A stretch of DNA of 64,000 bases. It comes from Euglena gracilis (Eukaryota). The stretch is taken from NCBI GenBank assembly GCA_039621445.1, contig CP154954.1:34383737-34447736 (forward strand), read 5' to 3'. How positions within the stretch are numbered: the first letter of the stretch is position 1; each line of letters begins with the position of its first letter. Below the pieces are notes generated by a model. The model saw only the letters and a program-made list of their open reading frames with translations. It did not search any database and was not told where the DNA came from. The position numbers and the translations under genes are program-made. Positions 12,001-35,805 of this stretch are shown one piece after another.

Positions 12001-15000
12001 AAATGGACCAAGTTGGGCCTTACTCCGAGTAACCGAATGGGTGTTCCAGGAGGCCTCCAAAGTCAGGGGACCCGTTGGTTTCATGATTGTCGTGGTTTAG
12101 TGGTAAGAAAAACATGCAGCGGGAATGTTGGTTGCAAGAAGTTAGCACATTTAGATGGGTGCATTCGACCATTCCTGGGGACTTTTACCAGGTCAGCCCA
12201 GGTTACCGTGTAAAAGTGGACCAAATTGGGCCTTACTCCGAGTAACCGAATGGGTGTTCCAGGAAGCCTCCAAGCTCAGGGGACCCGTTGGTTTCATGGT
12301 TGTCGTGGTTCAATGGTAAGAAAAACATGCAGCGGGAATGTTGTTTGCAGTAAATGAGCACATTTAGATGGGTGCATTCGACCATTCCGGGAGACATTTA
12401 CCAGGTCAGCCCAGGTTGCCGTGTAAAAATGGACCAAATTGGGCCTTACTCCGAGTGACCGAATGGGTGTTCCAGGAGGCCTCCAAAGTCAGGGGACCCG
12501 TTGGTTTCGTGATTGTCGTCGTTTAATGGTAAAAAAAAAAAGCAGCGGGAATGTTGGTTGCAAGAAATGAGCACATTTAGATGGGTGCATTCGACCATTC
12601 CGGGGGACATTTACCACGTCAGCCCAGGTTACCATGTAAAAATGGACCAAATTGGGCCTTACTCCGAGTAACCGAATGGGTGTTCCAGGAGGCCTCCAAA
12701 GTCAGGGGACCCGTTGGTTTCATGATTGTCGTGATTTAATGGTAAGAAAAACATGCGGCGGGAATGTTGGTTGCAAGAAATGAGCACATTTAGATGGGTG
12801 CATTCGACCATTCCGGGCGACTTTTACCAGGTCAGCCCAGGTTACCATGTAAAAATGGACCAAATTGGGCCTTACTCCGAGTAACCGAATGGGTGTTCCA
12901 GGAGGCCTCCAAGCTCAGGGGACCCGTTGGTTTCATGATTGTCGTGTTTCAATGGTAAGAAAAACATGCAGCGGGAATGTTGGTTGCAAGAAATGAGCAC
13001 ATTTAGATGGGTGCATTCGATCATTCCGGGGGACATTTACCAGGTCAGCCCAGGTTACCATGTAAAAATGGACCAAATTGGGCCTTACTTCGAGTAACCG
13101 AATGGGTGTTCCAGGAGGCCTCCAAATTCTGGGGACCCGTTGGTTTCATGATTGTCGTGGTTTCATGGTAAGAAAAACATGCAGCGTGAATGTTGTTTGC
13201 AAGAAACGAGCACATTTAGATGGGTGCATTCGACCATTCCTGGGGACTTTTACCAGGTCAGCCAAGGTTACCATGTAAAAATGGACCAAATTGGGCCTTA
13301 CTCCGAGTAACCGAATGGGTGTTCCAGGGGGCCTCCAAGCTCAGGGGACCCGTTGGTTTCATGATTGTCGTGGTTCAATGGTAAGAAAAACATGCAGCGG
13401 GAATGTTGGTTGCAAGAAATGAGCACATTTAGATGGGTGCATTCGACCATTCCGTGGGACATTTACCAGGTCAGCCCAGGTTACCATGTAAAAATGGACC
13501 AAAATGGGCCTTACTCCGAGTAACCGAATGGGTGTTCCAGGAGGCATCCAAAGTCAGGGGACCCGTTGGTTTCATGGTTGTCGTCGTTTAATGGTAAGAA
13601 AAAACAAGCAGCGGGAATGTTGGTTGCAAGAAATGAGCACATTGAGATGGGTGGATTCAACCATTCCGGGGGACATTTACCAGGTCAGCCCAGGTTACCA
13701 TGTAAAAATGGACCAAATTGGGCCTTACTCCGAGTAACCGAATGGGTGTTCCAGGAGGCCTCCAAAGTCAGGGGACCCGTTGGTGTCATGACTGCCGTGG
13801 TTTAATGGTAAGAAAAACATGCAGCGGGAACGTTGGTTGCAAGAAATGAGCACATTGAGATGTGTGCATTCGACCATTCCGGGGGACATTTACCAGGTCA
13901 GCCCAGGTTACCATGGAAAAATGGACCAAAATGGGCCTTACTCCGAGTAACCGAATGGGTGTTCCAGGAGGCCTCCAAAGTCAGGGGACCCGTTGGTTTC
14001 ATGATTGTTTGTGGCTTAATGGTAGGACAAACATGCAGCGGGAACGTTGGTTGCAAGAAATGAGCACATTTAGATGGGTGCATTCGACCATTCCGGGGGA
14101 CATTTACCAGGTCAGCCCAGGTTACCATGTAAAAATGGACCAAAATGGGCCTTTCACCGAGTAACCGAATAGGTGTTTCCAGGGGGCCTCCAAAGTCAGG
14201 GGACCCGTTGCTTTCATGATTGTCGTAGTTCAATGGTAGGAAAAACATACAGCGGGAGTGTTGGTTGCAAGAAATGAGCACATTTAGATGGGTGCATTCG
14301 ACCATTCCGGGGGACATTTACCAGGTCAGCCCAGGTTACCATGTAAAAATGGACCAAATTGGGCCTTACTCCGAGTAACCGAATGGGTGTTCCAGGAGGC
14401 CTCCAAAGTCAGGGGACCCGTTGGTTTAATGATGGTCGTGGTTTAATGGTAAGAAAAACATGCAGCGGGAACGTTGGTTGCAAGAAATGAGCACATTGAG
14501 ATGGGTGCATTCGACCATTCCGGGGGACATTTACCAGGTCAGCCCAGGTTACCATGTAAAAATGGACCAAATTGGGCCTTACTCCGAGTAACCGAATGGG
14601 TGTTCCAGGAGGCCTCCAAAGTCAGGGGACCCGTTGGTTTCATGATTGTCGTGGTTTAATGGTAAGAAAAACATGCAGCGGGAATGTTGGTTGCAAGAAA
14701 TGAGCACATTTAGATGGGTGCATTCGACCATTCCGGGGGACATTTACCAGGTCAGCCCAGGTTACCATGTAAAAATGGACCAAATTGGGCCTTACTCCGA
14801 GTAACCGAATGGGTGTTCCAGGAGGCCTCCAAAGTCAGGGGACCCGTTGGTTTCGTGATTGTCGTGGTTTAATGGTAAGAAAAAACATGCAGCGGGATTG
14901 TTGGTTGCAAGAAATGAGAACATTTAGATGGGTGCATTCGACCGTTCCAGGGGACATTTACCAGGTCAGCCCAGGTTACCGTATAAAAATGGACCATACT

Positions 15001-16664
15001 GGGCCTTACTCCGAGTAACCGAATGGGTGTTCCAGGAGGCCTCCAAAGTCAGGGCACCCGTTGGTTTCATGATTGTCGTGGCTTAGTGGTAAGAAAAACA
15101 TGCAGCGGGAACGCTGGTTGCAAGAAATGAGCACATTTAGATGGGTGCATTCGACCATTCCGGGGGACATTTTACCAGGTCAGCCCAGGTAACCATGTAA
15201 AAATGGACCAAAATGGGCCTTACTCCGAGTAACCGAACGGGTGTTCCAGGAGGCCTCCAAAGTCAGGGGACCCGTTGGTTTCATGATTGTCGTGGCTTAA
15301 TGTTTAGAAAAAAATGCAGCGGGAACGTTGGTTGCAAGAAATGAGCACATTTAGATGGGTGCATTCGACCATTCCGGGGGACATTTGCCAGGTCAGCCCA
15401 GGTTACCATGCAAAAATGGACCAAAATGGGCCTTACTCCGAGTAACCGAATGTGTGTTCCAGGAGGCCTCCAAAGTCAGGGGACCCGTTGGTTTCATGAT
15501 TGTCGTGGTTTAATGGTAAGAAAAACATGCAGCGGGAATGTTGGTTGCAAGAAATGAGCACATTTAGATGGGTGCATTCGACCATTCCGGGGGACATTTA
15601 CCAGGTCAGCCCAGGTTACCATGTAAAAATGGACCAAATTGGGCCTTACTCCGAGTAACCGAATGGGTGTTCCAGGAGGCCTCCAAAGTCAGGGGACCCG
15701 TTGGTTTCATGATTGTTGTGGCTTAATGGTAAGAAAAACATGCAGCGGGAATGTTGGTTGCAAGAAATGAGCACATTTAGATGGGTGCATTCGACCATTT
15801 CGGGGACATTTACCAGGTCAGCCCAGGTTACCATGTAAAAATGGACCAAATTGGGCCTTACTCCGAGTAACCGAATGGGTGTTCCAGGAGGCCTCCAAAG
15901 TCAGGGGACCCGTTGGTTTCATGATTGTCGTGGTTTAATGGTAAAAAAACATGCAGCGGGAATGTTGGTTGCAAGAAATGAGCACATTTAGATGGGTGCA
16001 TTCGACCATTCCGGGGGACATTTACCAGGTCAGCCCAGGTTACCATGTAAAAATGGACCAAATTGGGCCTTACTCCGAGTAACCGAATGGGTGTTCCAGG
16101 AGGCCTCCAAAGTCAGGGGACCCGTTGGTTTCATGATTGTCGTGGTTTAATGGTAAGAAAAACATGCAGCGGGAATGTTGGTTGCAAGAAATGAGCACAT
16201 TTAGATGGGTGCATTCGACCATTCCGGGGGACATTTACCAGGTCAGCCCAGGTTACCATGTAAAAATGGACCAAATTGGGCCTTACTCCGAGTAACCGAA
16301 TGGGTGTTCCAGGAGGCCTCCAAAGTCAGGGGACCCGTTGGTTTCATGATTGTCGTGGTTTAATGGTAAGAAAAACATGCAGCGGGAATGTTGGTTGCAA
16401 GAAATGAGCACATTTAGATGGGTGCATTCGACCATTTCGGGTTGACGTTTACCAGGTCAGCCCAGGTTACCGTGTAAAAATGGACCAAGCTGGGCCTTAC
16501 TCCGAGTAACCGAATGGGTGTTCCAGGAGGCCTCCAAAGTCAGGGCACCCGTTGGTTTCATGATTGTCGTGGTTAATTGTTAAGAAAAACATGCAGCGGA
16601 AATGTTGGTTTCAAGAAATGAGCACATTTAGATGGGTGTATTCGACCATTTCGGGGGACATTTA
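1..16664. repeat. 213-bp tandem satellite array (~78 copies, runs off the left edge)
   Basis: Unit CCTTACTCCGAGTAACCGAATGGGTGTTCCAGGAGGCCTCCAAAG...GGTTACCATGTAAAAATGGACCAAATTGGG recurs every 212-213 bp (TACTCCGAG at 15859, 16071, 16284). It ends mid-unit at GGGGGACATTTA (16664). Confidence 0.99.
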
Positions 16665-16665
16665 G

Positions 16666-17061
16666 TGTACGTCCTACCTTATCGCTTTCGCCCTTTGGTG
16701 CGCAGAAAAAGATATAAGTAGGAGCAACAGGAAAAATATAAAATAAATATAAAAGTTGTATTGCCCTTTTCCCCAATTAAGAGGCAGAGCACAAGACACT
16801 GTTGGAAGCCCTATGGGCTACGACAAAAGAAGCCAAGTATCTGGCAGTCCTTTCAGGACTTGTATGATCAAATCAAAACTTGAAGATTGAAAGAAGAAAA
16901 GAATACCACCTGCAGAGAGGAGGTCACGTGATCACACGTGATCGTGATCACGATTATCCCTAGGCTCTGCCACAATCCTAATTCTGAGACTATGCTCAGC
17001 AATCAGATTGTGGATGAGCCGTTCTATGGCGAACCACAGAACTGGGATCGTGCCTGGTACA
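16666..17061 (-). mobile_element. putative 3' LTR (396 bp)
   Basis: Bounded by inverted TGTAC (16666) ... GTACA (17061). It abuts the satellite on one side and a purine tract on the other. No second LTR is present to confirm it. Confidence 0.75.
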
Positions 17062-17073
17062 CATCCCCCTCCC
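17062..17073 (-). other. polypurine tract (PPT)
   Basis: Minus strand reads GGGAGGGGGATG immediately before the TGTACC LTR start. Confidence 0.7.
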
Positions 17074-17906
17074 AGGGCTATAGCCCGATTTCCCTCATGG
17101 ACCAGGCTATCCCAGGCCCATGGGGGTTCGGACATAGTCCTGAAGGATATGTTCCAGCACATTGCTGCCGACCTCCTATCTGCCAAATGGCAAAAGGAAA
17201 AAGGGAAGGAAAGTGCAAAAGCACGCAAAAACGCGCAAAAGTGGTTAACCGCTTATGCGGTGCCTACTTGTTGCGGCAAAGGGGTAGAAGCGGAAGAGCC
17301 CATTGGGAAATGGGGCTGGAAGGTTTCCTTTCCAGAAAGTCCCATCCACCCAGTTTGGGGTGTGTCTATGACACGCGGGGAGGTCTGATTCCATAATCGG
17401 AAAAGATTGAAGGGTAGGGTGTGGAAGGAGGGGGCACCTGGCCAGTCATATCTGACCAGGGAGAAAACCTATTTACAAAACCAACTGCCGGCGACAGCGA
17501 GATTTTGCCCCGGGGGGTAAAGGAGAGAGGAGTGGGGGGCTGGTCAAAAGACCTTAGCAGAAGTTTTGCTGTCTGGCAGTCTTACGTGGCCTTATAGCCG
17601 AAAAGTAACAAGTTGGGGGCTATTATTACGGTGTGCGCGCTGTACGCTGTGTGTCTTCTTACTGGCGGCATATACCGCTAGGAGAAGGCTTCACAGCGCT
17701 GCTCGGACACGGTGTTGTCGATGGGGTATCCCCAGAGACATATACCTCGATAGACGGGCAGTAGCCCAAAAGAGAGGGGGTAATATGTAAAGTAAAAATT
17801 CATATTGGCAGATGTGCCTGGGATAGATACCGAATTCAGGGCCTATAGGCCTGATGGAAAGGTCAGAACAGGGTCCATGGACCTGTGGCCTGTAAGCCTG
17901 GGGTAT

Positions 17907-20900
17907 CTATGGCACAGATGGCCATTTCCTGGGAGTCGGTGGTCTGATCTCCCGAACGTAATCTCCTTCAGGAGATTCCACTATCTCCAGTATCGGAGGT
18001 TCGAAATTTACAAGTTGCCTTTCAGGCTCATCGACATCAAAATCGGGATATTCCCATTTTTGTGTATACCCGTCGGGTAATCGTATTCCAAGCCTGTTGG
18101 CTTCGCGATGCAGAAAATTCTGGAGGTTATCCCAGAAGAAAAGTGGCAACATTGCCGGCCAGATCCAAAAGTTTAGGCGGGGGTGGTTGCATTGAACCTG
18201 TGGGGGTATCCCCGGATAAACGGCAGGATCTGCCTTGGTGTGCCAACCTGCGACTCGCGCTCGGATGGTGAATGGCCTTAAAACTTCTCTTACCCAATCG
18301 GTAAATTCCATTTTATAGGCCTTAGGGGGGTATTCGGGCAACAAAAAGGTAAAACTTGGTCGGTTTGGCAGGCTTTGTGCCGTAAAAAGTGGGTATATCA
18401 CCCTGTCCCAATCGGAGTCTTGAAAAATGTATGGCACTTTGGCCTTGCCTGCTGACTCGACTGCGAGTCGGACAGCTGCGCTGTCAAGATGAAAATCTTT
18501 GGCGATTCCGCCTGTGCGGTAGCTGTGTACAGCTTTAAACTTCTTGAACTGGTAGAAGTTGATTTGGGACTTATAGTCCTGCTTGAATTTGACCAGATGG
18601 TCTTCATTTTCTGGTATGACTCTAGTCATACCGCCAGTGGCAGGTAGCCAAAAATCTGCCTGTAGGCAGTTGATGCAACGGACAGGTATGTCCTTGTCAT
18701 AATCGTTTTCCGTCCAACGGAAATTGTCCATATTGGACCATGTCAGTAGGCAATCGCCACAAACCAGTGCTGCGCAATTGCGCACATATGCATCATGGTG
18801 GAAGCTTATGCTATCCGGGTTGCGTGTGCAAATATGCACTGCAGGCATGTCGTTTCGTAGCCTATGGCATGCTGTACATAACCACAATAGTGGATCATTG
18901 TCCTGGAAATCCAGTACGAAATTTCCTCCAAAGTATTGGGCTAATACCCTTGGAGATTTCGCATTCCAAAAACGCCAAGTGTGGCTGGTCGTGAAAATAC
19001 CGGGTTGATCCCGGTGGAACAAGGGCTTGATCCACTTGTTCAGCCAGGGGTCACTGCTGTTGCGGATCATATTGATCCTAGCCTGGCGAGTGTTGAGGGG
19101 GTCTACTCTGGACAATACGTCCTCAGTCCAAAATGGCTCATCGGCCTCGTGAGGGACATTTGACCGAATCGGTCTGATTGTGGGTTTGCGCTTAGCGCCT
19201 TCAGAGGTTGCAGCCACATAGCTGGCCATGGGTATCGTAGGCCTATGGCCTGTGCCAGAGCCATCTCCACCAGACGGTGGTGGCTCATCATCCCGCCGCT
19301 GTTCAGCGGGCTTGCAGCCTTCAGTTGAAGGTTTAGCCTTGGGCTTTATATGCCTGCCATATCGGCGTTCTTCCCGAGGGTCTGCCGGAGGCAGTGGTCT
19401 CTCCGCCGTTGGCGGTTTCGGGGCTGCAGGTTTGGCAGGAGATGCCGATGCTGCCGGTTTGGCAGGCGGTGGTTGCATTTCCGCCGTTGGCGGTGTTGGT
19501 GCAGCTGGTTTAGCTGCTGGGACATCTAACTCCATTGGAGTTGTAGCCGTAGGCTGTACGGCTGTTGAGCTGCTATCTGCCGTAGTAACCCTTTGGGTTT
19601 CGGGAGGGGATGTGGCTGGTGAGCCTCGAGGGGTCAGTACTGCTGAAACTGCGGACATCGCCGCGGTCAGACCCTGTAACACACCACCTAAAACACCTGT
19701 AGGTATTGTTGGTGATGCGACAGGTTCTGTCAGGGTTGGTGCCGTTGGCACTGCGGGTAAGGAGAGGGGTGGTACGGGAGGTACCGGTGGCCGTTCGGCC
19801 TCGGATGTAGGAGATTCCGTCTCTGAGCTGACATCTCCTTCAGGCGGAAGGGGTGTCCTGGAGCCCTTTGGGACTAATGGAAGGGCTGATGGCTGAGGTT
19901 CCTCAGCACATATGTCTTCCAGGCCTTCCATGCGGTCTTCACCGCCCTCACCATCACTCTCCTCACTGTCCTCCACCTTTTCTGGTGAAGCGGCAGGGGC
20001 TGCTGGCTGTTCCGCTATAGCGGTGGGCACAGTTGTTGGTTGCGCAATCGCGCTGGTGGGGGGTGCCGCAGTAGCGGGCTGGGGTGAAGAGGTAGCGACA
20101 GAAGATTGACTCTCCTGAAATCCCATAGGGATAAATGGTTCCGCAGTAGCCGATAGGCTGGAACCTAGGTAACGCCGACCGCGCCCAAAGACGGGTGGGG
20201 GTGTCTCACCAGGAATACCCTGGGGAACAGGCGTTGCCGGTTGCGGCTGCGTTGTGGGTACTAATGCCGGTTGCGGCTGTGTTGAAGGTTCCGATGGCGG
20301 AACTTCCGAAGCCGGTTGCGGCTTTGGGACAGGTGCCTGTGGCACCTGTCTTTTCCGTAATCGGAAAAGATCCCATGGTTTCCTTTCGTCTTCAACCATT
20401 CTGTGGTTGAAGCGCAGGAGGGGTAGGGCCATGCCCAGCTCGTTCCGTCTGCCGCCTTGGAAAAACGGCTGGAACAGCGCTCTATCGAGCGTATCGCCGA
20501 ATCGGCGTTTGACATAATCGTCTATGCTTTACTTCTCGAACAGGGGCCTGATGGGGACATAGTCCGGAGGAATTTCCCTGTCGGGATTGAGATAATAATA
20601 TATCTCCATAATCTGGCAGGTCCAAGCCCTGAACCAGAATTGCTGCAAATACAGCAGGAGTTGACGGTGGTTGTGTCGCCCATTCGAGCTTTGGTGAACA
20701 TCCTTTGGATTTCTGCAAAGGTGCAGGAGCATGATGCGCTTTGGCGCTGTCTGCGGGATATTGGCCTGTTGGCCTTCCTCGTCCTGGCCTTCGGCCTGTG
20801 GTTGAGTACTGCGTACTCCGAATCCCCAGAAGTCCACTGCAAACTTTTCGTGACAGTGGGTGCATCTGACGATATACGTCTGGGGGAAGCGGAGGTCAAT

Positions 20901-23712
20901 ATCGACCACTTCAAAATGATAGGCATATTGCCAGTGGTAGAAGACTTGCAGATTGCTGCAGAACATGTTCTCTGCCAATTTGGCAATATTGTCAGGCAGT
21001 GGGTAGATTTCCCACTCCAGGCCTTTTGGGCCTACACTGCGAATGCAGTCGAATAACTGCCGTAGCAAATCTTTACCTGTATTGTATCGGTCTTCCCGAC
21101 CGCAATCCAGATAAGGATATCCACAGGAGTTCAGGAATCTGCCGAAATTTTGGGTGGGGTATCCCGCCCAGAACCAAACGTGCCAGAATCCCGGCAGACC
21201 GTCCAGTATCGGACCGAGAATTACGTTGCCCTCATAGGCATACAGGGTTCCATCGTGGTGGAACTCACGATTACGCTCCAAATAGAGCTGTCTGGTCACA
21301 GTGACGACGAGTTATGCAACCAGCATTGGAAGAGAAAGTTCGTTTTGAAACTTTCTCATGGCCTCGAATGCGAGTGCATGAATCTCTTTGATGTGCTCGA
21401 ATAGAGCTTCCATGTCGTCCTCATAGACGTTCCGGTATTGGCCTTTCTGGCCTTTGCCTTGGCCTTTTTGGCCTGCTGTCGGTGCTCGTTTGGGAGCACT
21501 TTTGGCTTTACCCTTGCCCGATCGGGCTTCGCTTCGGGCAATCTCTTCTCTAGCTTGTTTCCAAGCATGAGGATTGAGATGGGCTGCAAAACGAGGGCCT
21601 ATAAAGGCAGGATTTATATCGCTTGTTGTTCCAAGCAATTCCTGCGGGGCATAAGCCATTTTGGCTGCTGGGTAGGCTGCAGGTTGATCCTGCATATCCG
21701 CCAAAAATGGTGGATTATTGATAGGGAGGGGTTCGCCTCTAGGCGGATCAATGTAAGTGGGGTGGCGTGTACGTTCACGCGTGTCATCCAGTATTTTCTG
21801 GACGCGTGCACGCTCAGCAGCTTCGTGCTCGATTTCTGCCCTATGGGCTCTCTGGGCCAGTTCAGCCTGTTCGAGCTGCTGCTGTGTGGGTTCAGGAACA
21901 GGCAGTACCTCGGTGGTGGCCTGTTGGCCTGGAGGTACCGGTGTTTCCTGGGATGCCGGCGCCATTGGCGCTGCTACTGGCAACAGCGCCGTTGGCGCTG
22001 CTGGAGCTGCCGGCGCTGCTGCTTTTGCTGGCACCGGCCGGGGGTTTTGCGCCATTGGCGCTGGCTTAGCCGGCGCGGCATAAGGTACGGGCACGGGAGG
22101 GGGTGCGGCCTGTTGGCCACCCGGCGCCCGTCGTTGCTGTGCTGGGGTAGCCTGTCTGGCTGGGGCTGGGGCAGGGGCCGGAGGTTTCGGTCTCCCCATT
22201 GGGGATGAAGATTCTGGCCTGCCCCGTTTACTACCTAGGTCTGCTGGCCTGTACGGCTGTGACGCATATCTGCGTTCTGCAGACCGTGGGCCCTGAAGTT
22301 GCTCTAGGGACTGGTAGTACTGGATGGCCTGCTGAGGTGATGTGAAGCGAGGTGCTGGGAGAGGTTCAGGTGCCGTTGGCACATCCTCTTCCACGGCCAT
22401 TCGGCCTTCTGCCTCGGCTTGCTCCACATCCTCAGCCCAGGATCCAGGTTCCTGACCCACCGACATATCCCGTTGTACGGGTAACTGACTTCCAGCTTCC
22501 AGATGGGCTGGATAAGGAAATGGTGGTTGTGCTGTTGACGGTTGCGTCATTGGCTCTGCCGCATATTGCGTTGGTGGTTCCCGATATTCGGGTGGTGGTG
22601 GTCTCGGCATACGAGTTGGGGACTGTGCATCGCGAAAAATTCGTGATGGCTGCACCGTTGGTGCTGGGATGTCTCCCATCTCGCTTTCCTCCACTGGGGG
22701 GCTATGCTCCCGCATGTATTCGGTGAATGCACCTGCATGATGGCGTATCCGCGGGATAGGCGGTACTGGAATACCCAGTGTACGCATGCTGACCTCAGGG
22801 GGATATTCCCCGGGCATGAAGTACACTTTTCCTGTCATCAAAGTCTGGCACATGCGCACCATTGTGCAATGGGCCTATTGGCCAGGCCCAGAATTTGACG
22901 ACAGTGGGTATCCCACAGCACCTGTAGAGATGGGTCTACTCTCTCTAGGTTGCTGGCCCGCAAGGCCGTTCGCAGAGTCTTCTCTGCGAGATTCACCAAT
23001 TCTGCGGTGAAGGCGGGGTATGGCACCGTTGGTGCTGCCTGTGGCGTCTCATGTGCCACAGGGATCGCGTAAGCGGATATACTACTGCTGCTAGCTGCGG
23101 TTTGGGCAGCGGGTTCCCGGACGGGATAAGCGCAGGTTGGGGCATCGCCTGTACGGCGTGTACTTGATGCGGGGTACCCTGTATGGGTTGAGATTTGGGT
23201 TGGGATTGGGGTTGCTGAGATGTAACACACTGTGGGGTATACAGGATGGGAGGTGAGTGGCCAGGCATGGCGTAATGCGCCTGCTCCATTGGAGGTGCCT
23301 GTCCCTGCCTCGCATACTGTTGTTGTTCCATTGGAACTTGGTGTACCTGCTGGGGTTGTGACTGTTCCATTGGAACTTGATATGCCTGTTGAGGCTGTGC
23401 CCCATATGCAGCTCCCATTGGCACAGAAGCCGCATAAACGACAGGTGGCGGTTGCGCCTGAGATAGGGGCGGCATTTGTGCCTGAGAGGGGGGCGGCATT
23501 TGTGCCTGAGAGGGATATGGCATTTGTGCCTGAACCTTTTGAGGGGGGGCTGGCATTTGTGCCTGAGCCGCATAAGCGACTGGAAAGGGTTGATATACTG
23601 CATATGCGGGCGCCCCTTGCGCTGGGGGTGCTGCCGCATTGGCGTGTTGGGGGTAGGGAGGGATGGCATACTGTATAGGGGGCGGACCGGGTCCGCGCCC
23701 TGGATCTTGCAT
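17907..23712 (-). pseudogene. giant extra ORF of the retrotransposon (~1,935 aa when reassembled): Pro/Gln/Ala-rich regions plus Cys/His-rich domains, function unknown
   Basis: The 279, 298, 516, 256 and 841 aa track ORFs join. Two 1-bp shifts (~23074, ~22863) link the first three. The 516, 256 and 841 aa ORFs share a frame and are separated only by single TAA codons (21312-21314, 20529-20531). 5806 nt + 2 = 1936 codons. Confidence 0.7.
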
Positions 23713-23751
23713 CGGTCCGGGGACCAAAAAGCAAAAAGTAGCTTTGATGAG

Positions 23752-23812
23752 CTGTAGAAAAAGAAGAGAGATGAATTGGGTTTGGGAGAAAAACACAGAG
23801 AGGGGAGGAAAA
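23752..23812 (-). promoter_or_regulatory. polypyrimidine tract and CAG splice acceptor upstream of the extra ORF
   Basis: Minus strand TTTTCCTCCCCTCTCTGTGTTTTTCTCCC...CTCTCTTCTTTTTCTACAG|CTC. The AG is at 23753-23752, 39 nt before the ATG at 23712. Confidence 0.65.
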
Positions 23813-23828
23813 GGCCTATAGGCCGATT

Positions 23829-24800
23829 TCAAAAATTATTCACAGAAATGTCTATATTATTTCTTTTATTCCGCAGCTTCCAGTCCTGTTGGACATAACC
23901 AATAAAACTGGAGGCTGGCTCCCAGGTGTCCTCCTCTGGCCCATAGCCTTTCCACCTGACCTTCCAGTAGTGGACTCCTCGATCAATTTTGTGATCGAGA
24001 ATTTTGTCCACCACAAAATCATCCGTTTCGGGTAACTTGGAACGGGGCTTGAAATAAAGGCACGGTAGTGCTTTGCCATTAGGCGGGGAAAGATATGGCT
24101 TGAAATCATCCATGTGAACATCCTCGATCCCGTTGGGCAGTGCCACCCTATAGCGGCCACTGTTACCAACGCGTTCGAGTATTTCACAGGGTCCGAGCCA
24201 GAGGGGGTCAAGCTTGGAAGCTTGCATACGGATTCGGCTATTCCGAACCCATACGCGATCACCAGCACTATAGCCAGGTGATTTGAATTCTTGTAAAAAT
24301 TTATTTCTCTTTTGAGAATGGATATCTGTAATGCGTTTCTGAACAGTAGTTCTGAGAGACTCTACCTCAGAGAACCATGTCTCACAGGTTACGCTACTTC
24401 GAGCTGGTCTCTCTGATGGTATATCACCAATTGCTGGGGGTTCTCGCCCAAAAACAATTTTGTATGGGGAGTGGGGTAAAACTAAACCCGGTAGGGTGTT
24501 TATATAAAAGAGGGACCATGGCAAAACCTGGACCCAGGCCTGGCGCGAATCAGCCAGTGAAAGACGGAGCATATTTACAACAGCTTTCACTGCTGCCTCG
24601 GCGCGGCCATTGCCCTTCGGGCGATATATAATGGAAAAATGCTGTTCGATTCCCAGTAAACCACATAGGGTTGTGAAGAATCGAGAGGAGATCAAATGAT
24701 CTTGATCACTGACAATCTCATTCGGTAAGCCCATTAGGCATATGCACTTCTCCATAAATATCTGCGCTAAAATTTGGCGGTCAACCCTGCCTTTGGGCAT
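23829..24800 (-). CDS. retrotransposon integrase core (partial), GPY/F-like region and C-terminal chromodomain; N-terminus lost
   Basis: [11 protein letters not shown]...[10 protein letters not shown] with exactly 35 residues between D and [25 protein letters not shown]...[17 protein letters not shown]. No stops over 323 aa. Confidence 0.96.
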
Positions 24801-24802
24801 GG

Positions 24803-27800
24803 AGTTGGGCAACAAAAGGGATTTGCCCCCCAAAAGGGTGGGGTAACACAAAGGATTTTGTTGTTTTGGGGCCCTCGAACAGTTGGGCAACAAAAGGGAT
24901 TTGCCCCCCCAAAACGGGTGGGTAACACAAGGGATTTTGTTATTTTGGGGCCCTCGAACAGTTGGGCAACAAAAGGGATTTGCCCCCCCAAAACGGGTGG
25001 GTAACACAAGGGATTTTGTTGTTTTGGGGCCCTCGAACAGTTGGGCAACCAAAGGGATTTGCCCCCCCAAAACGGGTGGGTAACACAAGGGATTTTGTTG
25101 TTTTGGGGCCCTCGAACAGTTGGGCAACAAAAGGGATTTGCCCCCCCCCCAAAACGGGTGGGTAACACAAGGGATTTTGTTATTTTGGGGCCCTCGAACA
25201 GTTGGGCAACAAAAGGGATTTGCCCCCCAAAACGGGTGGGTAACACAAGGGATTTTGTTATTTTGGGGCCCTCGAACAGTTGGGCAACCAAAGGGATTTG
25301 CCCCCCCAAAACGGGTGGGTAACACAAGGGATTTTGTTATTTTGGGGCCCTCGAACAGTTCGGCAACCAAAGGGATTTGCCCCCCAAAACGGGTGGGTAA
25401 CACAAGGGATTTTGTTGTTTTGGGGCCCTCGAACAGTTGGGCAACCAAAGGGATTTGCCCCCCAAAACGGGTGGGTAACACAAGGGATTTTGTTGATTTG
25501 GGGCCCTCGAACAGTTGGGCAACAAAACGGATTTGCCCCCCCGAAACGGGTGGGTAACACTTGTGTTGGGGCCCTCGAACAGTTCGGCAACAAAAGGGAT
25601 TTGCCCCCCAAAACGAATGGGTAACACAAGGGATTTTGTTATTTTGGGGCCCTCGAACAGTTGGGCAACCAAAGGGATTTGCCCCCCAAAACGGGTGGGT
25701 AACACAAGGGATTTTGTTATTTTGGGGCCCTCGAACAGTTGGGCAACAAAAGGGATTTGCCCCCCAAAACGGGTGGGTAACACAAGGGATTTTGTTGTTT
25801 TGGGGCCCTCGAACAGTTGGGCAACCAAAGGGATTTGCCCCCCAAAACGGGTGGGTAACACAAGGGATTTTGTTGTTTTGGGGCCCTCGAACAGTTGGGC
25901 AACAAAACGGATTTGCCCCCCAAAACGGGTGGGTAACACAAGGGATTTTGTTATTTTGGGGCCCTCGAACAGTTGGGCAACCAAAGGGATTTGCCCCCCC
26001 AAAACGGGTGGGTAACACAAGGGATTTTGTTGTTTTGGGGCCCTCGAACAGTTGGGCAACCAAAGGGATTTGCCCCCCCAAAACGGGTGGGTAACACAAG
26101 GGATTTTGTTGTTTTGGGGCCCTCGAACAGTTGGGCAACAAAAGGGATTTGCCCCCCCAAAACGGGTGGGTAACACAAGGGATTTTGTTATTTTGGGGCC
26201 CTCGAACAGTTCGGCAACCAAAGGGATTTGCCCCCCCAAAACGGGTGGGTAACACAAGGGATTTTGTTGTTTTGGGGCCCTCGAACAGTTGGGCAACAAA
26301 AAGGATTTGCCCCCCCAAAACGGGTGGGTAACACAAGGGATTTTGTTGTTTTGGGCCCCCCAAACATTTGGCAACCAAAAGATATTTGCCCCCCAAAACG
26401 GGTGGGTAACACAAGGGATTTTGTTGTTTTGGGGCCCTCGAACAGTTGGGCAACAAAAGGGATTTGCCCCCCCAAAACGGGTGGGTAACACAAGGGATTT
26501 TGTTGTTTTGGGGCCCTCGAACAGTTCGGCAACCAAAGGGATTTGCCCCCCCAAAACGGGTGGGTAACACAAGGGATTTTGTTGATTTGGGGCCCTCGAA
26601 CAGTTGGGCAACCAAAGGGATTTGCCCCCCCCCAAAACGGGTGGGTAACACAAGGGATTTTGTTATTTTGGGGCCCTCGAACAGTTGGGCAACAAAAGGG
26701 ATTTGCCCCCCCCAAAACGGGTGGGTAACACAAGGGATTTTGTTGTTTTGGGGCCCTCGAACAGTTGGGCAACCAAAGGGATTTGCCCCCCAAAACGGGT
26801 GGGTAACACAAGGGATTTTGTTATGTGGCGCCCTCGAACAGTTGGGCAACCAAAGGGATTTGCCCCCCAAAACGGGTGGGTAACACAAGGGATTTTGTTG
26901 TTTTGGGGCCCTCGAACAGTTGGGCAACCAAAGGGATTTGCCCCCCCCCAAAACGGGTGGGTAACACAAGGGATTTTGTTGTTTTGGGGCCCTCGAACAG
27001 TTGGGCAACAAAAGGGATTTGCCCCCCCAAAACGGGTGGGTAACACAAGGGATTTTGTTGTTTTGGGGCCCTCGAACAGTTGGGCAACCAAAGGGATTTG
27101 CCCCCCAAAACGGGTGGGTAACACAAGGGATTTTGTTGTTTTGGGGCCCTCGAACAGTTGGGCAACAAAAGGGATTTGCCCCCCCAAAACGGGTGGGTAA
27201 CACAAGGGATTTTGTTGATTTGGGGCCCTCGAACAGTTTGGCAACCAAAGGGATTTGCCCCCCCAAAACGGGTGGGTAACACAAGGGATTTTGTTGTTTT
27301 GGGGCCCTCGAACAGTTGGGCAACAAAAGGGATTTGCCCCCCCAAAACGGGTGGGTAACACAAGGGATTTTGTTGTTTTGGGGCCCTCGAACAGTTGAGC
27401 AACAAAACGGATTTGCCCCCCCCAAAACGGGTGGGTAACACAAGGGATTTTGTTGTTTTGGGGCCCTCGAACAGTTGGGCAACAAAAGGGATTTGCCCCC
27501 CAAAACGGGTGGGTAACACAAGGGATTTTGTTGATTTGGGGCCCTCGAACAGTTGAGCAACAAAACGGATTTGCCCCCCCAAAACGGGTGGGTAACACAA
27601 GGGATTTTGTTATTTTGGGGCCCTCGAACCGTTTGGCAACCAAAGGGATTTACCCCCCAAAACGAATGGGTAACACAAGGGATTTTGTTATTTTGGGCCC
27701 TCGAACAGTTCGGCAACCAAAGGGATTTGCCCCCCCAAAACGGGTGGGTAACACAAGGGATTTTGTTATTTTGGGGCCCTCGAACAGTTGGGCAACACAA

Positions 27801-29700
27801 GGGATTTGCCCCCCCCAAAACGGGTGGGTAACACAAGGGATTTTGTTGTTTTGGGGCCCTCGAACAGTTGGGCAACAAAACGGATTTGCCCCCCCAAAAC
27901 GGGTGGGTAACACAAGGGATTTTGTTGTTTTGGGGCCCTCGAACAGTTGGGCAACAAAAGGGATTTGCCCCCCAAAACGGGTGGGTAACACAAGGGATTT
28001 TGTTGTTTTGGGGCCCTCGAACAGTTCGGCAACAAAAGGGATTTGCCCCCCAAAACGGCTGGGTAACACAAGGGATTTTGTTTTTTTTTGGGCCCTCGAA
28101 CAGTTCGGCAACCAAAGGGATTTGCCCCCCAAAACGGGTGGGTAACACAAGGGATTTTGTTATTTTGGGGCCCTCGAACAGTTTGGCAACAAAAGGGATT
28201 TGCCCCCCCAAAACGGGTGGGTAACACAAGGGATTTTGTTATTTTGGGGCCCTCGAACAGTTCGGCAACCAAAGGGATTTGCCCCCCCAAAACGGGTGGG
28301 TAACACAAGGGATTTTGTTGTTTTGGGGCCCTCGAACAGTTGGGCAACAAAAGGGATTTGCCCCCCAAAACGGGTGGGTAACACAAGGGATTTTGTTTTT
28401 TTGGGGCCCTCGAACAGTTCGGCAAACAAAAGGATTTGCCCCCCCAAAACGGGTGGGTAACACAAGGGATTTTGTTGTTTTGGGGCCCTCGAACAGTTGG
28501 GCAACAAAACGGATTTGCCCCCCAAAACGGGTGGGTAACACAAGGGATTTTGTTGTTTTGGGGCCCTCGAACAGTTGGGCAACCAAAGGGATTTGCCCCC
28601 CAAAACGGGTGGGTAACACAAGGGATTTTGTTGTTTTGGGGCCCTCGAACAGTTGGGCAACAAAAGGGATTTGCCCCCCCAAAACGGGTGGGTAACACAA
28701 GGGATTTTGTTATTTTGGGGCCCTCGAACCGTTGGGCAACAAAAGGGATTTGCCCCCCCAAAACGGGTGGGTAACACAAGGGATTTTGTTGTTTTGGGGC
28801 CCTCGAACAGTTGGGCAACAAAGGGATTTGCCCCCCCAAAACGGGTGGGTAACACAAGGGATTTTGTTGTTTTGGGGCCCTCGAACAGTTGGGCAACAAA
28901 AGGGATTTGCCCCCCAAAACGGGTGGGTAACACAAGGGATTTTGTTATTTTGGGGCCCTCGAACAGTTGGGCAACAAAAGGGATTTGCCCCCCCCCCCCG
29001 CCAAAACGGGTGGGTAACACAAGGGATTTTGTTATTTTGGGGCCCTCGAACAGTTGGGCAACAAAAGGGATTTGCCCCCCCCCAAAACGGGTGGGTAACA
29101 CAAGGGATTTTGTTGTTTTGGGGCCCTCGAACAGTTGGGCAACAAAAGGGATTTGCCCCCCCAAAACGGGTGGGTAACACAAGGGATTTTGTTGTTTTGG
29201 GGCCCTCGAACAGTTCGGCAACAAAAGGGATTTGCCCCCCCAAAACGGGTGGGTAACACAAGGGATTTTGTTGTTTTGGGGCCCTCGAACAGTTGGGCAA
29301 CAAAAGGGATTTGCCCCCCCAAAACGGGTGGGTAACACAAGGGATTTTGTTAATTTGCGGCCCTCGAACAGTTGGGCAACAAAGGGATTTGCCCCCCAAA
29401 ACGGGTGGGTAACACAAGGGATTTTGTTGTTTTGGGGCCCTCGAACAGTTGGGCAACAAAAGGGATTTGCCCCCCCAAAACGGGGGGGTAACACAAGGGA
29501 TTTGTTTGTTTTGGGGCCCTCCAACAGTTGGGCAAACAAAAGAGTTTTCCCCCCCCCCAAAACGGGTGGGTAACACAAGGGATTTTGTTGTTTTGGGGCC
29601 CTCGAACAGTTGGGCAACCAAAGGGATTTGCCCCCCCCCCAAAACGGGTGGGTAACACAAGGGATTTTGTTATTTTGGGGCCCTCGAACAGTTGGGCAAC

Positions 29701-29732
<32 letters not shown>

Positions 29733-30870
29733 AATACCCCCCCCCACCCCCCCCCCCCCCCTCCCCCCCCGCCCCCCAAAACGGGTGGGTAACACAAGGG
29801 ATTTTGTTATTTTGGGGCCCTCGAACAGTTGGGCAACCAAAGGGATTTGCCCCCCCAAAACGGGTGGGTAACACAAGGGATTTTGTTATTTTGGGGCCCT
29901 CGAACAGTTCGGCAACCAAAGGGATTTGCCCCCCAAAACGGGTGGGTAACACAAGGGATTTTGTTGTTTTGGGGCCCTCGAACAGTTGGGCAACCAAAGG
30001 GATTTGCCCCCCAAAACGGGTGGGTAACACAAGGGATTTTGTTGTTTTGGGGCCCTCGAACAGTTGGGCAACAAAAGGGGTTTGCCCCCCAAAACGGGTG
30101 GGTAACACAAGGGATTTTGTTATTTTGGGGCCCTCGAACCGTTCGGCAACAAAAGGGATTTGCCCCCCAAAACGGGTGGGTAACACAAGGGATTTTGTTG
30201 TTTTGGGGCCCTCGAACAGTTGGGCAATCAAAGGGATTTGCCCCCCCAAAACGGTGGGTAACAAAAGGGATTTGTTTATTTTGGCCCCTTCGAACAGTTG
30301 GGCAATCTAAGGGATTTGCCCCCCAAAACGGGTGGGTAACACAAGGGATTTTGTTGTTTTGGGGCCCTCGAACAGTTGGGCAACCAAAGGGATTTGCCCC
30401 CCCCCAAAACGGGTGGGTAACACAAGGGATTTTGTTGTTTTGGGGCCCTCGAACAGTTGGGCAACAAAACGGATTTGCCCCCCCAAAACGGGTGGGTAAC
30501 ACAAGGGATTTTGTTATTTTGGGGCCCTCGAACAGTTGGGCACCAAAAGGGATTGCCCCCCCAAAACGGGTGGGTAACACAAGGGATTTTGTTGTTTTGG
30601 GGCCCTCGAACAGTTGGGCAACAAAAGGGATTTGCCCCCCCAAAACGGGTGGGCTACCCCAAGGGTTTTTGTGGTTTGGGGCCCTCGAACCGGTTGGGAA
30701 ACAAAGGGGTTTTGCCCCCCCAAAACGGGTGGGTAACACAAGGGATTTTGTTGTTTTGGGGCCCTCGAACAGTTGGGCAACCAAAGGGATTTGCCCCCCC
30801 AAAACGGGTGGGTAACACAAGGGATTTTGTTGTTTTGGGGCCCCGAACAGTTGAGGCAACCAAAAGGGTT

Positions 30871-30904
<34 letters not shown>

Positions 30905-33900
30905 AAACGGGTGTGTAACACAAGGGATTTTGTTGTTTTGGGGCCCTCGAACAGTTGGGCAACCAAAGGGATTTGCCCCCCCAAAACGGGTGGGTAACAC
31001 AAGGGATTTTGTTATTTTGGGGCCCTCGAACCGTTGGGCAACAAAAGGGATTTGCCCCCCAAAACGGGTGGGTAACACAAGGGATTTTGTTGATTTGGGG
31101 CCCTCGAACAGTTCGGCAACCAAAGGGATTTGCCCCCCCAAAAGGGGGGGGAAACACAGGGGGTTTGGTTATTTGGGGCCCTCGAACAGTTGGGCAACCA
31201 AAGGGATTTGCCCCCCCCCCAAAACGGGTGGGTAACACAAGGGATTTTGTTGTTTTGGGGCCCTCGAACAGTTGGGCAACCAAAGGGATTTGCCCCCCCA
31301 AAACGGGTGGGTAACACAAGGGATTTTGTTATTTGGGGCCCTCGAACCGTTGGGAGCAAAGGGATTTGCCCCCCAAAAAGGTTGGGTAACACAAAAACAC
31401 AAAACAAAAACAAAAAAACGAACAAAACCAAAAAAAAACAATTTGCCCCCCCAAAACCGGTTGGTAAAACAAAGGGTTTTTTTTATTTGGGGCCCTCGAA
31501 CAGTTGGGCAACCAAAGGGATTTGCCCCCCCAAAACGGGTGGGTAACACAAGGGATTTTGTTATTTTGGGGCCCTCGAACCGTTCGCCAACCAAAGGGAT
31601 TTGCCCCCCCAAAACGGGTGGGTAACACAAGGGATTTTGTTGTTTTGGGGCCCTCGAACAGTTCGGCAACCAAAGGGATTTGCCCCCCCCCAAAACGGGT
31701 GGGTAACACAAGGGATTTTGTTTTTTTGGGGCCCTCGAACAGTTGGGCAACAAAACGGATTTGCCCCCCAAAACGGGTGGGTAACACAAGGGATTTTGTT
31801 ATGTTGGGGCGCTTGAACGGTTAGGCAACAAAAGGGAGTTGTCCCCCAAAACGGGTGGGTAACACAAGGGATTTTGTTGTTGGGGCCCTCGAACAGTTGG
31901 GCAACAAAGGGATTGCCCCCCCAAAACGGGTGGGTAACACAAGGGATTTTGTTATTTTGGGGCCGTCGAACAGTTGGGCAACAAAGGGATTTGCCCCCCA
32001 AAACGGGTGGGTAACACAAGGGATTTTGTTGTTTTGGGGCCCTCGAACAGTTGGGCAACCAAAGGGATTTGCCCCCCAAAACGGGTGGGTAACACAAGGG
32101 ATTTTGTTGTTTTGGGGCCCTCGAACAGTTGAGCAACAAAAGGGATTTGCCCCCCAAAACGGGTGGGTAACACAAGGGATTTTGTTGTTTTGGCGCCCTC
32201 GAACAGTGGAACAAAAAAGCGGATTTCCCCCCCCCCAAAACGGGTGGGTAACACAAGGGATTTTGTTGTTTGGGGGCCCTCGAACAGTTGGGCAACAAAA
32301 GGGATTTGCCCCCCCAAAACGGGTGGGTAACACAAGGGATTTTGTTGGTTGGGGCCCTCGAACAGTTGGGCAACAAAGGGATTTGCCCCCCAAAACGGGG
32401 GGGTAACACAAGGGATTTTGTTGTTTGGGGCCCTCGAACAGTTGGGGCAACCAAAGGGATTTGCCCCCCCAAAACGGGTGGGTAACACAAGGGATTTTGT
32501 TATTTTGGGGCCCTCGAACAGTTGGGCAACAAAGGGATTTGCCCCCCCCCAAAACGGGTGGGTAACACAAGGGATTTTGTTGTTTTGGGGCCCTCGAACA
32601 GTTGGGCAACCAAAGGGATTTGCCCCCCCAAAACGGGTGGGTAACACAAGGGATTTTGTTGTTTTGGGGCCCTCGAACAGTTGGGCAACCAAAGGGATTT
32701 GCCCCCCCAAAACGGGTGGGTAACACAAGGGATTTTGTTGTTTTGGGGCCCTCGAACAGTTGGGCAACCAAAGGGATTTGCCCCCCCAAAACGGGTGGGT
32801 AACACAAGGGATTTTGTTATTTTGGGGCCCTCGAACAGTTGGGCAACCAAAGGGATTTGCCCCCCAAAAAGGTTGGGTAACACAAGGGATTTTGTTGTTT
32901 TTGGGGCCCCGAACAGTTGGGCAACCAAAGGGATTTGCCCCCCCAAAACGGGTGGGTAACACAAGGGATTTTGTTATTTTGGGGCCCTCGAACCGTTCGC
33001 CAACCAAAGGGATTTGCCCCCCAAAACGGGTGGGTAACACAAGGGATTTTGTTGTTTTGGGGCCCTCGAACAGTTGGGCAACCAAAGGGATTTGCCCCCC
33101 CAAAACGGGTGGGTAACACAAGGGATTTTGTTGTTTTGGGGCCCTCGAACAGTTGGGCAACCAAAGGGATTTGCCCCCCAAAACGGGTGGGTAACACAAG
33201 GGATTTTGTTGTTTTGGGGCCCTCGAACAGTTGGGCAACCAAAGGGATTTGCCCCCCAAAACGGGTGGGTAACACAAGGGATTTTGTTTTTTTTTGGGCC
33301 CTCGAACAGTTGGGCAACCAAAGGGATTTGCCCCCCAAAACGGGTGGGTAACACAAGGGATTGGGGCCCTCGAACAGTTGCCCCCCCAAACAAACACAGG
33401 GATTTTGCCCCCCCCCAACCCCCCCCCCGGGCCGAACACACCCCCCCCCAAACACAGGATTGGGGCCCTCCACAACGGGATTTGCCTCCCCCCCCCCCAA
33501 AACGGGTGGGTAACACAAGGGATTTTTGGGGCCCTCTCCCTTCCCCCCCCCAATCCCCCACCCTCGAACCCCCCCCCCCCCCCCCCCCTCGAACAGTTCG
33601 GCACAAAAGGGATTTGCCCCCCCCAAACAGTGGGCACAAAACAAGGGTTTGTTGTTTTGGGGCCCTCGAACAGGGGGGCCCCCAAACGGGGGGTAAAGGG
33701 TTGGGGCGAGGGGGTGGGGGGGGGGCCCTCGAGTTGGGAAAGGGGGGGGGCCCCAAAAGGGCGGGTGGGTGGGGGGGGGGCTTGCACGGTGGGTAACACA
33801 AGGGATTTTGTTGTTTTGGGGCCCTCGAACCAACAAAACAAAAAAAAAAAAACCAACGGGTGGGTAACACTGGGAGGGGGGGGGGGTAACACAAGGGATT

Positions 33901-35805
33901 TTGTTTTCACCTTTTGTGGGGGGGGGGGGGGGGGGGGTAACACAAGGGATTTTGTTATTTTGGGTTGGGGGGGGTTTTTTTTTGGGGCTTGTGGGGGGAT
34001 GGGGTTTGGGGCCCTCGATTTGGGGGGCAACACAGGGATTTGTTATTTGGGGGGGGTGGTTAACAAAAAAAAGGGGTGTAACACAAGGGATTTTGTGTTT
34101 TGGGGCCCTCGCGGGATTTGAGGGTGGGGTCGGGGGATTTTGTTGTGGGGAGGGGGTTAACCCCCCAAAACGGTGGGGGGATTTTGTTTTGGGGCCCTCG
34201 AACAGTTGAGCAACAAAAGGGATTTGCCCCCCCAAAACGGGTGGGTAACACAAGGGATTTTGTTGTTTTGGGGCCCTCGAACAGTTGGGCAACCAAAGGG
34301 ATTTGCCCCCCCCCCCCCAAAACGGGTGGGTAACACAAGGGATTTTGTTGTTTTGGGGCCCTCGAACAGTTGAGCAACAAAACGGATTTGCCCCCCCAAA
34401 ACGGGTGGGTAACACAAGGGATTTTGTTATTTTGGGGCCCTCGAACAGTTGGGCAGCAAAAGGGATTTGCCCCCCCAAAACGGGTGGGTAACACAAGGGA
34501 TTTTGTTGTTTTGGGGCCCTCGAACAGTTGGGCAACAAAAGGGATTTGCCCCCCCAAAACGGGTGGGTAACACAAGGGATTTTGTTGTTTTGGGGCCCTC
34601 GAACAGTTGGGCAACAAAACGGATTTGCCCCCCAAAACGGGTGGGTAACACAAGGGATTTTGTTGTTTTGGGGCCCTCGAACAGTTGAGCAACAAAACGG
34701 ATTTGCCCCCCCAAAACGGGTGGGTAACACAAGGGATTTTGTTGTTTTGGGGCCCTCGAACAGTTCGGCAACAAAAGGGATTTGCCCCCCCAAAACGGGT
34801 GGGTAACACAAGGGATTTTGTTGTTTTGGGGCCCTCGAACAGTTCGGCAACAAAAGGGATTTGCCCCCCCCAAAACGGGTGGGTAACACAAGGGATTTTG
34901 TTGTTTGCCCCCCAAAACGGGTGGGTAACACAAGGGATTTTGTTGTTTTGGGGCCCTCGAACAGTTGGGCAACAAAACGGATTTGCCCCCCAAAACGAAT
35001 GGGTAACACAAGGGATTTTGTTGTTTTGGGGCCCTCGAACAGTTGAGCAACAAAACGGATTTGCCCCCCCAAAACGGGTGGGTAACACAAGGGATTTTGT
35101 TGTTTTGGGGCCCTCGAACAGTTCGGCAACCAAAGGGATCTGCCCCCCCCAAAACGGGTGGGTAACACAAGGGATTTTGTTGTTTTGGGGCCCTCGAACA
35201 GTTGGGCAACCAAAGGGATTTGCCCCCCCCCAAAACGGGTGGGTAACACAAGGGATTTTGTTGTTTTGGGGCCGTCGAACAGTTGGGCAACAAAAGGGAT
35301 TTGCCCCCCCAAAACGGGTGGGTAACACAAGGGATTTTGTTGTTTTGGGGCCCTCGAACAGTTCGGCAACAAAAGGGTTTTGCCCCCCCCAAAACAGGTG
35401 GGTAACACAAGGGATTTTGTTGTTTTGGGGCCGTCGAACAGTTGGGCAACAAAAGGGATTTGCCCCCCCAAAACGGGTGGGTAACACAAGGGATTTTGTT
35501 GTTTTGGGGCCCTCGAACAGTTGAGCAACAAAACGGATTTGCCCCCCCAAAACGGGTGGGTAACACAAGGGATTTTGTTGTTTTGGGGCCCTCGAACAGT
35601 TCGGCAACCAAAAGGATCTGCCCCCCCAAAACGGGTGGGTAACACAAGGGATTTTGTTATTTTGGGGCCCTCGAACCGTTGGGCAACCAAAGGGTTTTGC
35701 CCCCCCCCCCAAAACGGGTGGGTAACACAAGGGATTTTGTTGTTTCGGGGCCCTCGAACAGTTGGGCAACAAAACGGATTTGCCCCCCCAAAACGGGTGG
35801 GTAAC
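24803..35805. repeat. 78-79-bp tandem satellite array (~140 copies)
   Basis: Unit GGGGCCCTCGAACAGTTGGGCAACAAAAGGGATTTGCCCCCCCAAAACGGGTGGGTAACACAAGGGATTTTGTTGTTTT; length varies with the C-run. Garbled in patches at 29.7-34.2 kb. Confidence 0.99.

Follow-up and report, generated by a model that had tools for sequence, protein, structure and literature searches.

Among Ty3/gypsy elements, an env-type acceptor is found in gypsy of Drosophila. In barley, the env-type gene located behind pol of Bagy2 is described as being expressed via a spliced subgenomic RNA (PMC7264820), and for Cer1 of C. elegans the accessory protein CERV is reported to derive from spliced mRNA that occurs with and without the spliced leader SL1, while the 8-kb genomic RNA skips the sites involved (PMC3315495; PMC10309623). 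Chromovirus-like retrotransposons referred to as DAM-LTR elements have been reported from green algae and from Euglena gracilis (10.64898/2026.05.21.726589), and in the latter species the 3' ends of both outrons and conventional introns are described as consisting of a C-rich pyrimidine tract followed by CAG (PMC11170887).

The locus considered here lies on the minus strand of a 64-kb stretch of DNA, referred to as the window in the following, and centres on the 116 nt that follow a pol stop codon. This stretch separates pol from a giant third open reading frame (ORF3) of a chromovirus-type Ty3/gypsy LTR retrotransposon and forms the intergenic spacer of the two. Our preferred reading, favoured tentatively and at somewhat less than an even chance, is that the pyrimidine tract and CAG of the spacer form a 3' splice site that is functional in intact relatives, the choice between a donor in cis and a spliced leader (SL) being left undecided. 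In such relatives, splicing at the CAG would yield a subgenomic mRNA in which the first AUG is the ORF3 start, as is the case for the env genes of retroviruses and gypsy-like elements, and RNA that remains full-length by skipping the site would be used for replication and gag-pol.

A truncated chromovirus-type element between satellite arrays

The initial annotation had placed an integrase ahead of the spacer. This is correct for the last ~316 residues, but the bulk of the 1,466-aa frame in which they lie is readthrough of the 79-nt satellite (Table 1), a repeat that creates long spurious open frames. Pfam searches of the pol remnant returned Chromo (E 5.6e-11) and SH3_Tf2-1 (E 1.4e-7), and tblastn placed residues 746-1066 of P0001, a 1,066-aa RT-RNaseH-integrase-chromo protein, on 24794-23832 with 315/321 residues identical. 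For the rest of P0001, as for the rest of P0002 and P0009, tblastn gave no further match anywhere in the window, and no RT, gag or 5' LTR was found within these 64 kb. The remnant represents the C-terminal end of a chromovirus-type pol that is cut off on its 5' side where the 79-nt satellite begins, this satellite standing in place of the 5' part of the element from within the integrase core onwards. An integrase with a C-terminal chromodomain, which is one of the features expected of chromovirus-type Ty3/gypsy elements, is present in the window copy, whereas a pol with the order RT, RNase H and integrase and with an upstream gag is absent from it; the relatives have the full pol order. The window copy is hence a truncated member of the chromovirus type and not an element of a different kind.

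Table 1. Features of the element and of the surrounding tandem arrays, with positions in the window.
Feature	Position	Strand	Remarks
213-nt satellite	7-16664		~78 copies, 92-93% identity; TRF rows 7-7485 and 7484-16664
Inferred 3' LTR, 399 nt	17063-16665	minus	starts TGTGTAC, ends GTACAC (inverted termini)
Polypurine tract GGGAGGGGGA	17073-17064	minus	~830 nt after ORF3 stop, directly before inferred LTR
Motif copy 3 GAAATCGGGCTATAGCCC	17092-17075	minus	beside polypurine tract
Second pyrimidine-rich YAG site	17220-17180, YAG at 17182	minus	at least 34/40 pyrimidines before AG, ends CAG
Palindrome copy 2, exact GGCCTATAGGCC	17851-17840	minus	~55 nt after ORF3 stop; hairpin -8.5 kcal/mol, z -1.78
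ORF3, ~1,934 codons	17907-23712	minus	one long reading frame, broken in window copy
In-frame stops in ORF3	21314-21312, 20531-20529	minus
Single-nucleotide frameshifts in ORF3	near 23130 and near 22850	minus	from comparison with P0059
ORF3 start ATG	23712-23710	minus
Pol-ORF3 spacer, 116 nt	23828-23713	minus	72% pyrimidine
Second AG, downstream of candidate AG	23743-23742	minus
CTCATCAAAGC, immediately 3' of candidate AG	starts 23751	minus
Candidate 3' splice site AG	23753-23752	minus	context CTACAG|CTCATC
Branch-point-like TTCAT	23775-23771, A at 23772	minus	pattern match only (yTnAy)
Pyrimidine tract, 60 nt	23813-23754	minus	51/60 pyrimidines
Motif copy 1 GAAATCGGCCTATAGGCC	23830-23813	minus	contains 12-nt palindrome 23824-23813; hairpin -8.2 kcal/mol, z -2.26
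Pol stop codon TGA	23831-23829	minus	run of five T before it
Pol remnant	23832-24794	minus	C-terminal integrase core, SH3-like domain and chromodomain (Pfam, tblastn)
79-nt satellite	24803-35805		C- and G-run-rich interruption around 33400-34180
21-nt minisatellite	37997-41262		159 copies, 73% matches

For the integrase fragment, 39 longer relatives were found among 1,402 candidates. In the five pol relatives that were viewed, the protein terminates at the corresponding position behind the chromodomain, P0009 being 3 residues longer. The domain order of the pol relatives is protease, Dam, RT, RNase H, integrase and chromodomain, with the Dam-methyltransferase domain recorded in 10 of the 39 (precomputed Pfam; among P0002-P0035); in P0009 this domain scores 33.5 bits against a Pfam cut-off of 28.1, while P0005 falls below the cut-off. 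A scan of bacterial and archaeal genome contigs, for which an alignment of the window integrase fragment with 11 full-length pol relatives served as query, gave 25 pattern matches, none of which was confirmed as a relative.

Read in the sense of the element, the truncated pol is followed by the spacer, ORF3, ~830 nt, the polypurine tract, the 3' LTR and satellite. Since a polypurine tract and an LTR-like end follow after ORF3, ORF3 lies inside the element. The LTR boundaries are inferred solely from the polypurine tract and the termini, the window holding no LTR partner; the LTR so delimited ends exactly at the edge of the 213-nt satellite (16664). A blastn search of 16600-24800 against the window for a second copy or an LTR partner of this block returned satellite matches only. 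The tract in the spacer had also been considered as a polypurine tract, which is rejected in view of its pyrimidine richness on the sense strand and of the proper polypurine tract listed in Table 1.

The window copy is dead, truncated at its 5' side inside the integrase by satellite and with a broken ORF3, so that the candidate splice site can have no present function at this locus, and because of the truncation there is no leader here in which to look for a donor. Elements with a chromodomain are known to insert into heterochromatin, as is also stated in the introduction of the DAM-LTR preprint (10.64898/2026.05.21.726589), and an intact 3' end that abuts satellite fits such an insertion. Tandem arrays dominate the window. 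The 213-nt satellite occupies its first quarter, and the 21-nt minisatellite, if read on the plus strand, gives seven-residue repeats of roughly PPDGDAH; a repetitive coding exon and a plain minisatellite are both conceivable. Rfam gave no hits and the tRNA search no genes in the window, and no host genes were recognisable by eye among the ORFs of 42000-64000.

The open reading frame behind pol

The extra ORF that had been annotated after the spacer stands insofar as the ATG at 23712 does open a real ORF, but this ORF is far larger than its first open frame and it is broken. The first open frame from the ATG comprises 239 codons in a region where all three frames are open. P0059, a protein of 269 aa from another copy that is 86% identical, is continuous across three frames of the window, and since it continues where the window changes frame, the window copy carries two single-nucleotide frameshifts. 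The third of these frames extends to 17907 with two in-frame stops as its only interruptions, giving three frame-2 pieces of ORF3 that are split by single stops. P0059 was the sole close-relative hit for the start region of ORF3 and begins 72 residues into it, and among 200 candidates no protein fragment spans the spacer or the ORF3 start. A sequence at 22883-22872, GGCCAATAGGCC, was examined as a possible cassette boundary and discarded, as it lies inside coding sequence through which P0059 reads.

The predicted ORF3 product contains 14.5% proline, 11.0% alanine and 7.3% glutamine and is mostly of low complexity, with the last ~440 residues looking globular. Its C-terminal half has 19 relatives at E ≤0.001 (13 at ≤1e-10), all of them fragments of 59-380 aa with identities from 99% down to 23%. 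Among the C-terminal relatives a Cys/His pattern and a PG-PPQ-NHP-IWP block are conserved, and the Cys/His-rich modules are kept at 28-44% identity. Two Cys/His-rich stretches are discernible, at 21311-20532 and at 19238-17910 on the minus strand, each with a C-T-x-C-H motif (CTHCH and CTACH); they may be repeats of one metal-binding module, relatives having been aligned for the second stretch (19238-17910) only. Judged by this sequence conservation and by the continuity of P0059, ORF3 is a real, conserved coding region within the element, and both the polypurine tract and the 3' LTR lie downstream of it.

No known family or fold emerged from the searches with ORF3. Its pieces matched no Pfam family at default or relaxed thresholds, with two sub-threshold zinc-ribbon hits (E 0.16 and 0.31) for a 260-aa piece; the best score in the ESM Atlas was an uninformative 0.76; and a profile search of the PDB gave one hit at E 0.094. 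The AlphaFold model was too poor (mean pLDDT 47.5), and with it Foldseek reached a best E of 1.3 against the PDB, with no hit at ≤0.001. In none of the five translated pieces does a Kyte-Doolittle window of 19 residues reach 1.6, the level applied for a membrane segment, and the N-terminus MQDPGRGPGPPP is neither hydrophobic nor signal-like. Lacking a membrane segment and a signal-like start, the ORF3 product is not an envelope (env) protein.

The two coding parts of the copy can also be compared with respect to damage. If the ragged truncated edge is left aside, only one residue distinguishes the integrase remnant from P0001, and ORF3 of the same copy carries four disabling changes in 5.8 kb. 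By a rough reckoning both levels are compatible with uniform neutral decay of ~0.4-0.5%; alternatively, ORF3 could already have been dispensable in the source lineage.

The pyrimidine tract and its candidate acceptor

The spacer proved to be described correctly to the base in the initial annotation, and the same is true of the other two elements of that description, a pyrimidine tract of ~60 nt ending in CTACAG and an in-frame gap of 39 nt that separates the AG from the ATG. The tract comprises 23 C, 28 T, 7 A and 2 G and ends in CTAC, to which the AG is directly joined; the 39 nt at 23751-23713 are a multiple of three, which places the candidate AG in frame with the ORF3 ATG. This ATG is the first start codon after the AG, the spacer being devoid of any other, and the branch-like A (23772) lies 20 nt from the G of the AG. 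At the level of sequence pattern, a pyrimidine tract, an AG and a branch-like site are thus all present just 5' of the first AUG of ORF3.

The pyrimidine content of the tract exceeds chance expectation. Among the 60-nt windows on the sense strand of the 8.1-kb unique block (16665-24800) it has the highest pyrimidine content, and in 300 dinucleotide-preserving shuffles of this block the count of 51 was never reached (mean 43.5, sd 1.5, maximum 49). When each sense-strand YAG was scored by the number of pyrimidines in the preceding 20 nt, the candidate AG had 18/20, and a value of at least 18/20 was found at 1 of 301 YAG sites in the unique block and at 7 of 961 on the entire minus strand. No other site in the 8.1-kb unique block resembles an acceptor as closely as the candidate AG.

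These figures also bear on the possibility that the tract is mere filler, CT-rich and of low complexity, which plays no part in expression and persists between the coding regions only because non-coding sequence tolerates such tracts, ORF3 being expressed otherwise or hardly at all. That the observed count was matched in none of the 300 shuffles speaks against this, and a CAG with a branch-like motif at the canonical distance, directly 5' of the first ATG of a conserved ORF of 1,934 codons, would be a notable coincidence. On the other hand, simple and tandem repeats abound in the window, four such pyrimidine clusters occur in it over both strands, of which the tract is one, and the spacer is open in all three frames because pyrimidine-rich sequence is without stop codons. 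The YAG site at 17182 has a pyrimidine content over 40 nt that equals or exceeds that of the spacer site. It lies ~90 nt upstream of palindrome motif copy 3 and is followed by a short unconserved ORF only, with no conserved ORF behind it, which indicates that such sites arise in the element without an obvious coding target. We consider filler rather unlikely, while giving it more weight than the other alternatives discussed below.

Within the spacer, the tract is preceded by a 12-nt palindrome, GC-clamped and centred on TATA, that begins four bases past the pol stop. Allowing up to two mismatches, GGCCTATAGGCC has 8 matches against 1.84 expected, a number that none of 100 shuffles reached. Motif copy 3 matches copy 1 at 17/19 aligned positions (score 28 against a shuffle maximum of 27), and its two differences lie on opposite arms so that the palindrome is preserved. 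As RNA, the palindromes would form small hairpins of -6.8 to -8.5 kcal/mol (z 0.13 to -2.26).

A palindrome or a tract in this position could act as a promoter or recruit ribosomes, so that transcription of ORF3 would start within the spacer or ribosomes would enter there. About 100 nt separate the TATA-centred GGCCTATAGGCC from the ATG downstream of it, the tract is predicted to be unpaired in the fold of the spacer RNA, and some viral entry sites have a pyrimidine tract some tens of nt before the AUG. In contrast, one further copy of the palindrome is found behind ORF3 and another immediately ahead of the polypurine tract, and because no gene follows at these places the palindromes are unlikely to act as an ORF3 promoter. 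Overall, an internal start of either kind appears improbable.

The vicinity of the pol stop raises a further alternative, in which ORF3 is made as a fusion to Pol, either through removal of a 92-nt GT-AG intron (23843-23752), by which a pol codon boundary would be joined to a codon boundary in the ORF3 frame, or through -1 slippage on the stop-codon T-run, which would likewise enter the ORF3 frame. The GT at 23843 is indeed on a pol codon boundary, the exon behind the acceptor starts on a codon boundary of the ORF3 frame, and the Val codon that supplies the GT is kept in 4/5 of the viewed relatives; the ORF3 frame is open from 23835, and the -8.2 kcal/mol hairpin sits just past the stop, with an extended stem that starts in the stop codon itself and a GC stem 4 nt downstream of that codon. 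However, the last 400 nt of pol contain nine GTs of compatible phase, making the phase match unremarkable, the donor GTGAAT is weak, and the frame is open merely owing to the pyrimidine richness of the spacer, with a one-in-three chance of the frame coincidence. As for slippage, T TTT TGA does not conform to a canonical slippery heptamer, and only a small hairpin is present; a programmed -1 frameshift signal (X XXY YYZ with a stable structure 5-9 nt downstream) was not found at the pol stop. A Pol-ORF3 fusion is accordingly the least probable of the alternatives and, in our estimate, very unlikely. Simple read-through of the pol stop codon was dismissed, as the resulting frame differs from the one supported by P0059.

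What argues for an acceptor is, besides the exceptional tract, its predicted unpaired state and the branch-like TTCAT 20 nt upstream, the placement of the site in the 116 nt that separate two coding regions, with the ORF3 start as the first ATG after the AG and with ORF3 itself a real gene inside the element. Translation of a gene behind pol must be achieved somehow, and splicing is the documented route in LTR elements. Against it stand the comparable YAG at 17182 without an ORF, the length of the 60-nt tract, which is far greater than an acceptor requires, and the fact that ORF3 is not env-like; in addition, CT-rich low-complexity sequence can originate by slippage. The composition of the tract next to the AG is a further point. 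CAG is common to the window site and to the 3' ends described for Euglena gracilis, but the tracts there are reported as C-rich (PMC11170887), whereas the last 20 nt before the AG are T-rich here (11 T, 7 C, against 28 T and 23 C in the tract as a whole), a difference that would speak against the acceptor if the host is Euglena.

Beyond the anatomy, splicing at the CAG in intact relatives is inferred, and so is a donor, which might be a cis donor in the leader or the host spliced leader. In the latter case, which was the second option of the initial annotation, the site would be a trans-splice acceptor at which the host SL is added, capping an ORF3 mRNA and cutting the genomic RNA in two. This would be in line with the Dam-methyltransferase domain of the pol relatives, an architecture reported from green algae and from Euglena gracilis, which trans-splices (10.64898/2026.05.21.726589), with the pyrimidine tract and CAG at which Euglena outrons are described to end (PMC11170887), and with the occurrence of spliced Cer1 mRNA both with and without SL1 in C. 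elegans, as reported (PMC3315495). On the other side, the proximal tract is T-rich rather than C-rich, and, as weak evidence, two SL motifs had no match in the window and Rfam found nothing there; a green-algal host would exclude trans-splicing altogether. Trans-splicing at the site seems quite unlikely to us. More speculative still, and decidedly improbable, is the extension of this thought that in a trans-splicing protist such as Euglena intact copies would use the host SL at an internal acceptor to obtain a capped mRNA that encodes a giant accessory protein of non-env type, with each event destroying one replication template and thereby imposing a trade-off between expression and retrotransposition.

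Comparison with known systems

Splicing mechanisms of the type proposed here have been described before, and the window copy is dead; the acceptor is best regarded as a plausible and reasonable annotation hypothesis on such a copy, not as a discovery. If intact relatives use the site, retroviral-style expression of a gene behind pol would extend to a chromovirus-type element of a microbial eukaryote and to a non-env product. The more unusual object is ORF3 itself, which is giant, has conserved Cys/His modules and matches no known family or fold, and to learn how and when it is expressed would be a first step toward the role of so large an accessory gene in a retrotransposon.

With the DAM-LTR elements, the relatives of the window integrase share the order of pol domains, that is protease, Dam-like methyltransferase, RT, RNase H, integrase and chromodomain (10.64898/2026.05.21.726589); in the parts of the preprint consulted, no large ORF after pol is mentioned. 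The window copy is without the 5' half of the element, including the part of pol in which the DAM-LTR relatives have the Dam domain.

The locus resembles the env-type acceptors of retroviruses, gypsy and Bagy2 in that a third ORF is located between pol and the 3' LTR, that a pyrimidine tract and an AG lie just upstream of its start codon, and that the full-length RNA must skip the site. Unlike in the env systems, the ORF comprises ~1,934 codons, encodes a proline-, alanine- and glutamine-rich product without a membrane segment and belongs to a chromovirus-type element; furthermore, the env systems splice from a donor, whereas the window site is known from its sequence pattern alone. Cer1 differs in other respects. 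Its CERV exons are described as overlapping gag-pol, while ORF3 is separate and follows the integrase, and both the splicing of Cer1 and its SL1 site, which lies near the 5' end, are reported to have been demonstrated experimentally, the window site being a matter of sequence only (PMC3315495; PMC10309623). Nevertheless, Cer1 is, by the same reports, a Ty3/gypsy element in a trans-splicing host that obtains an accessory protein from spliced RNA and keeps its genome-length RNA unspliced, and it thereby provides a precedent for the idea of a switch between replication and accessory-gene expression.
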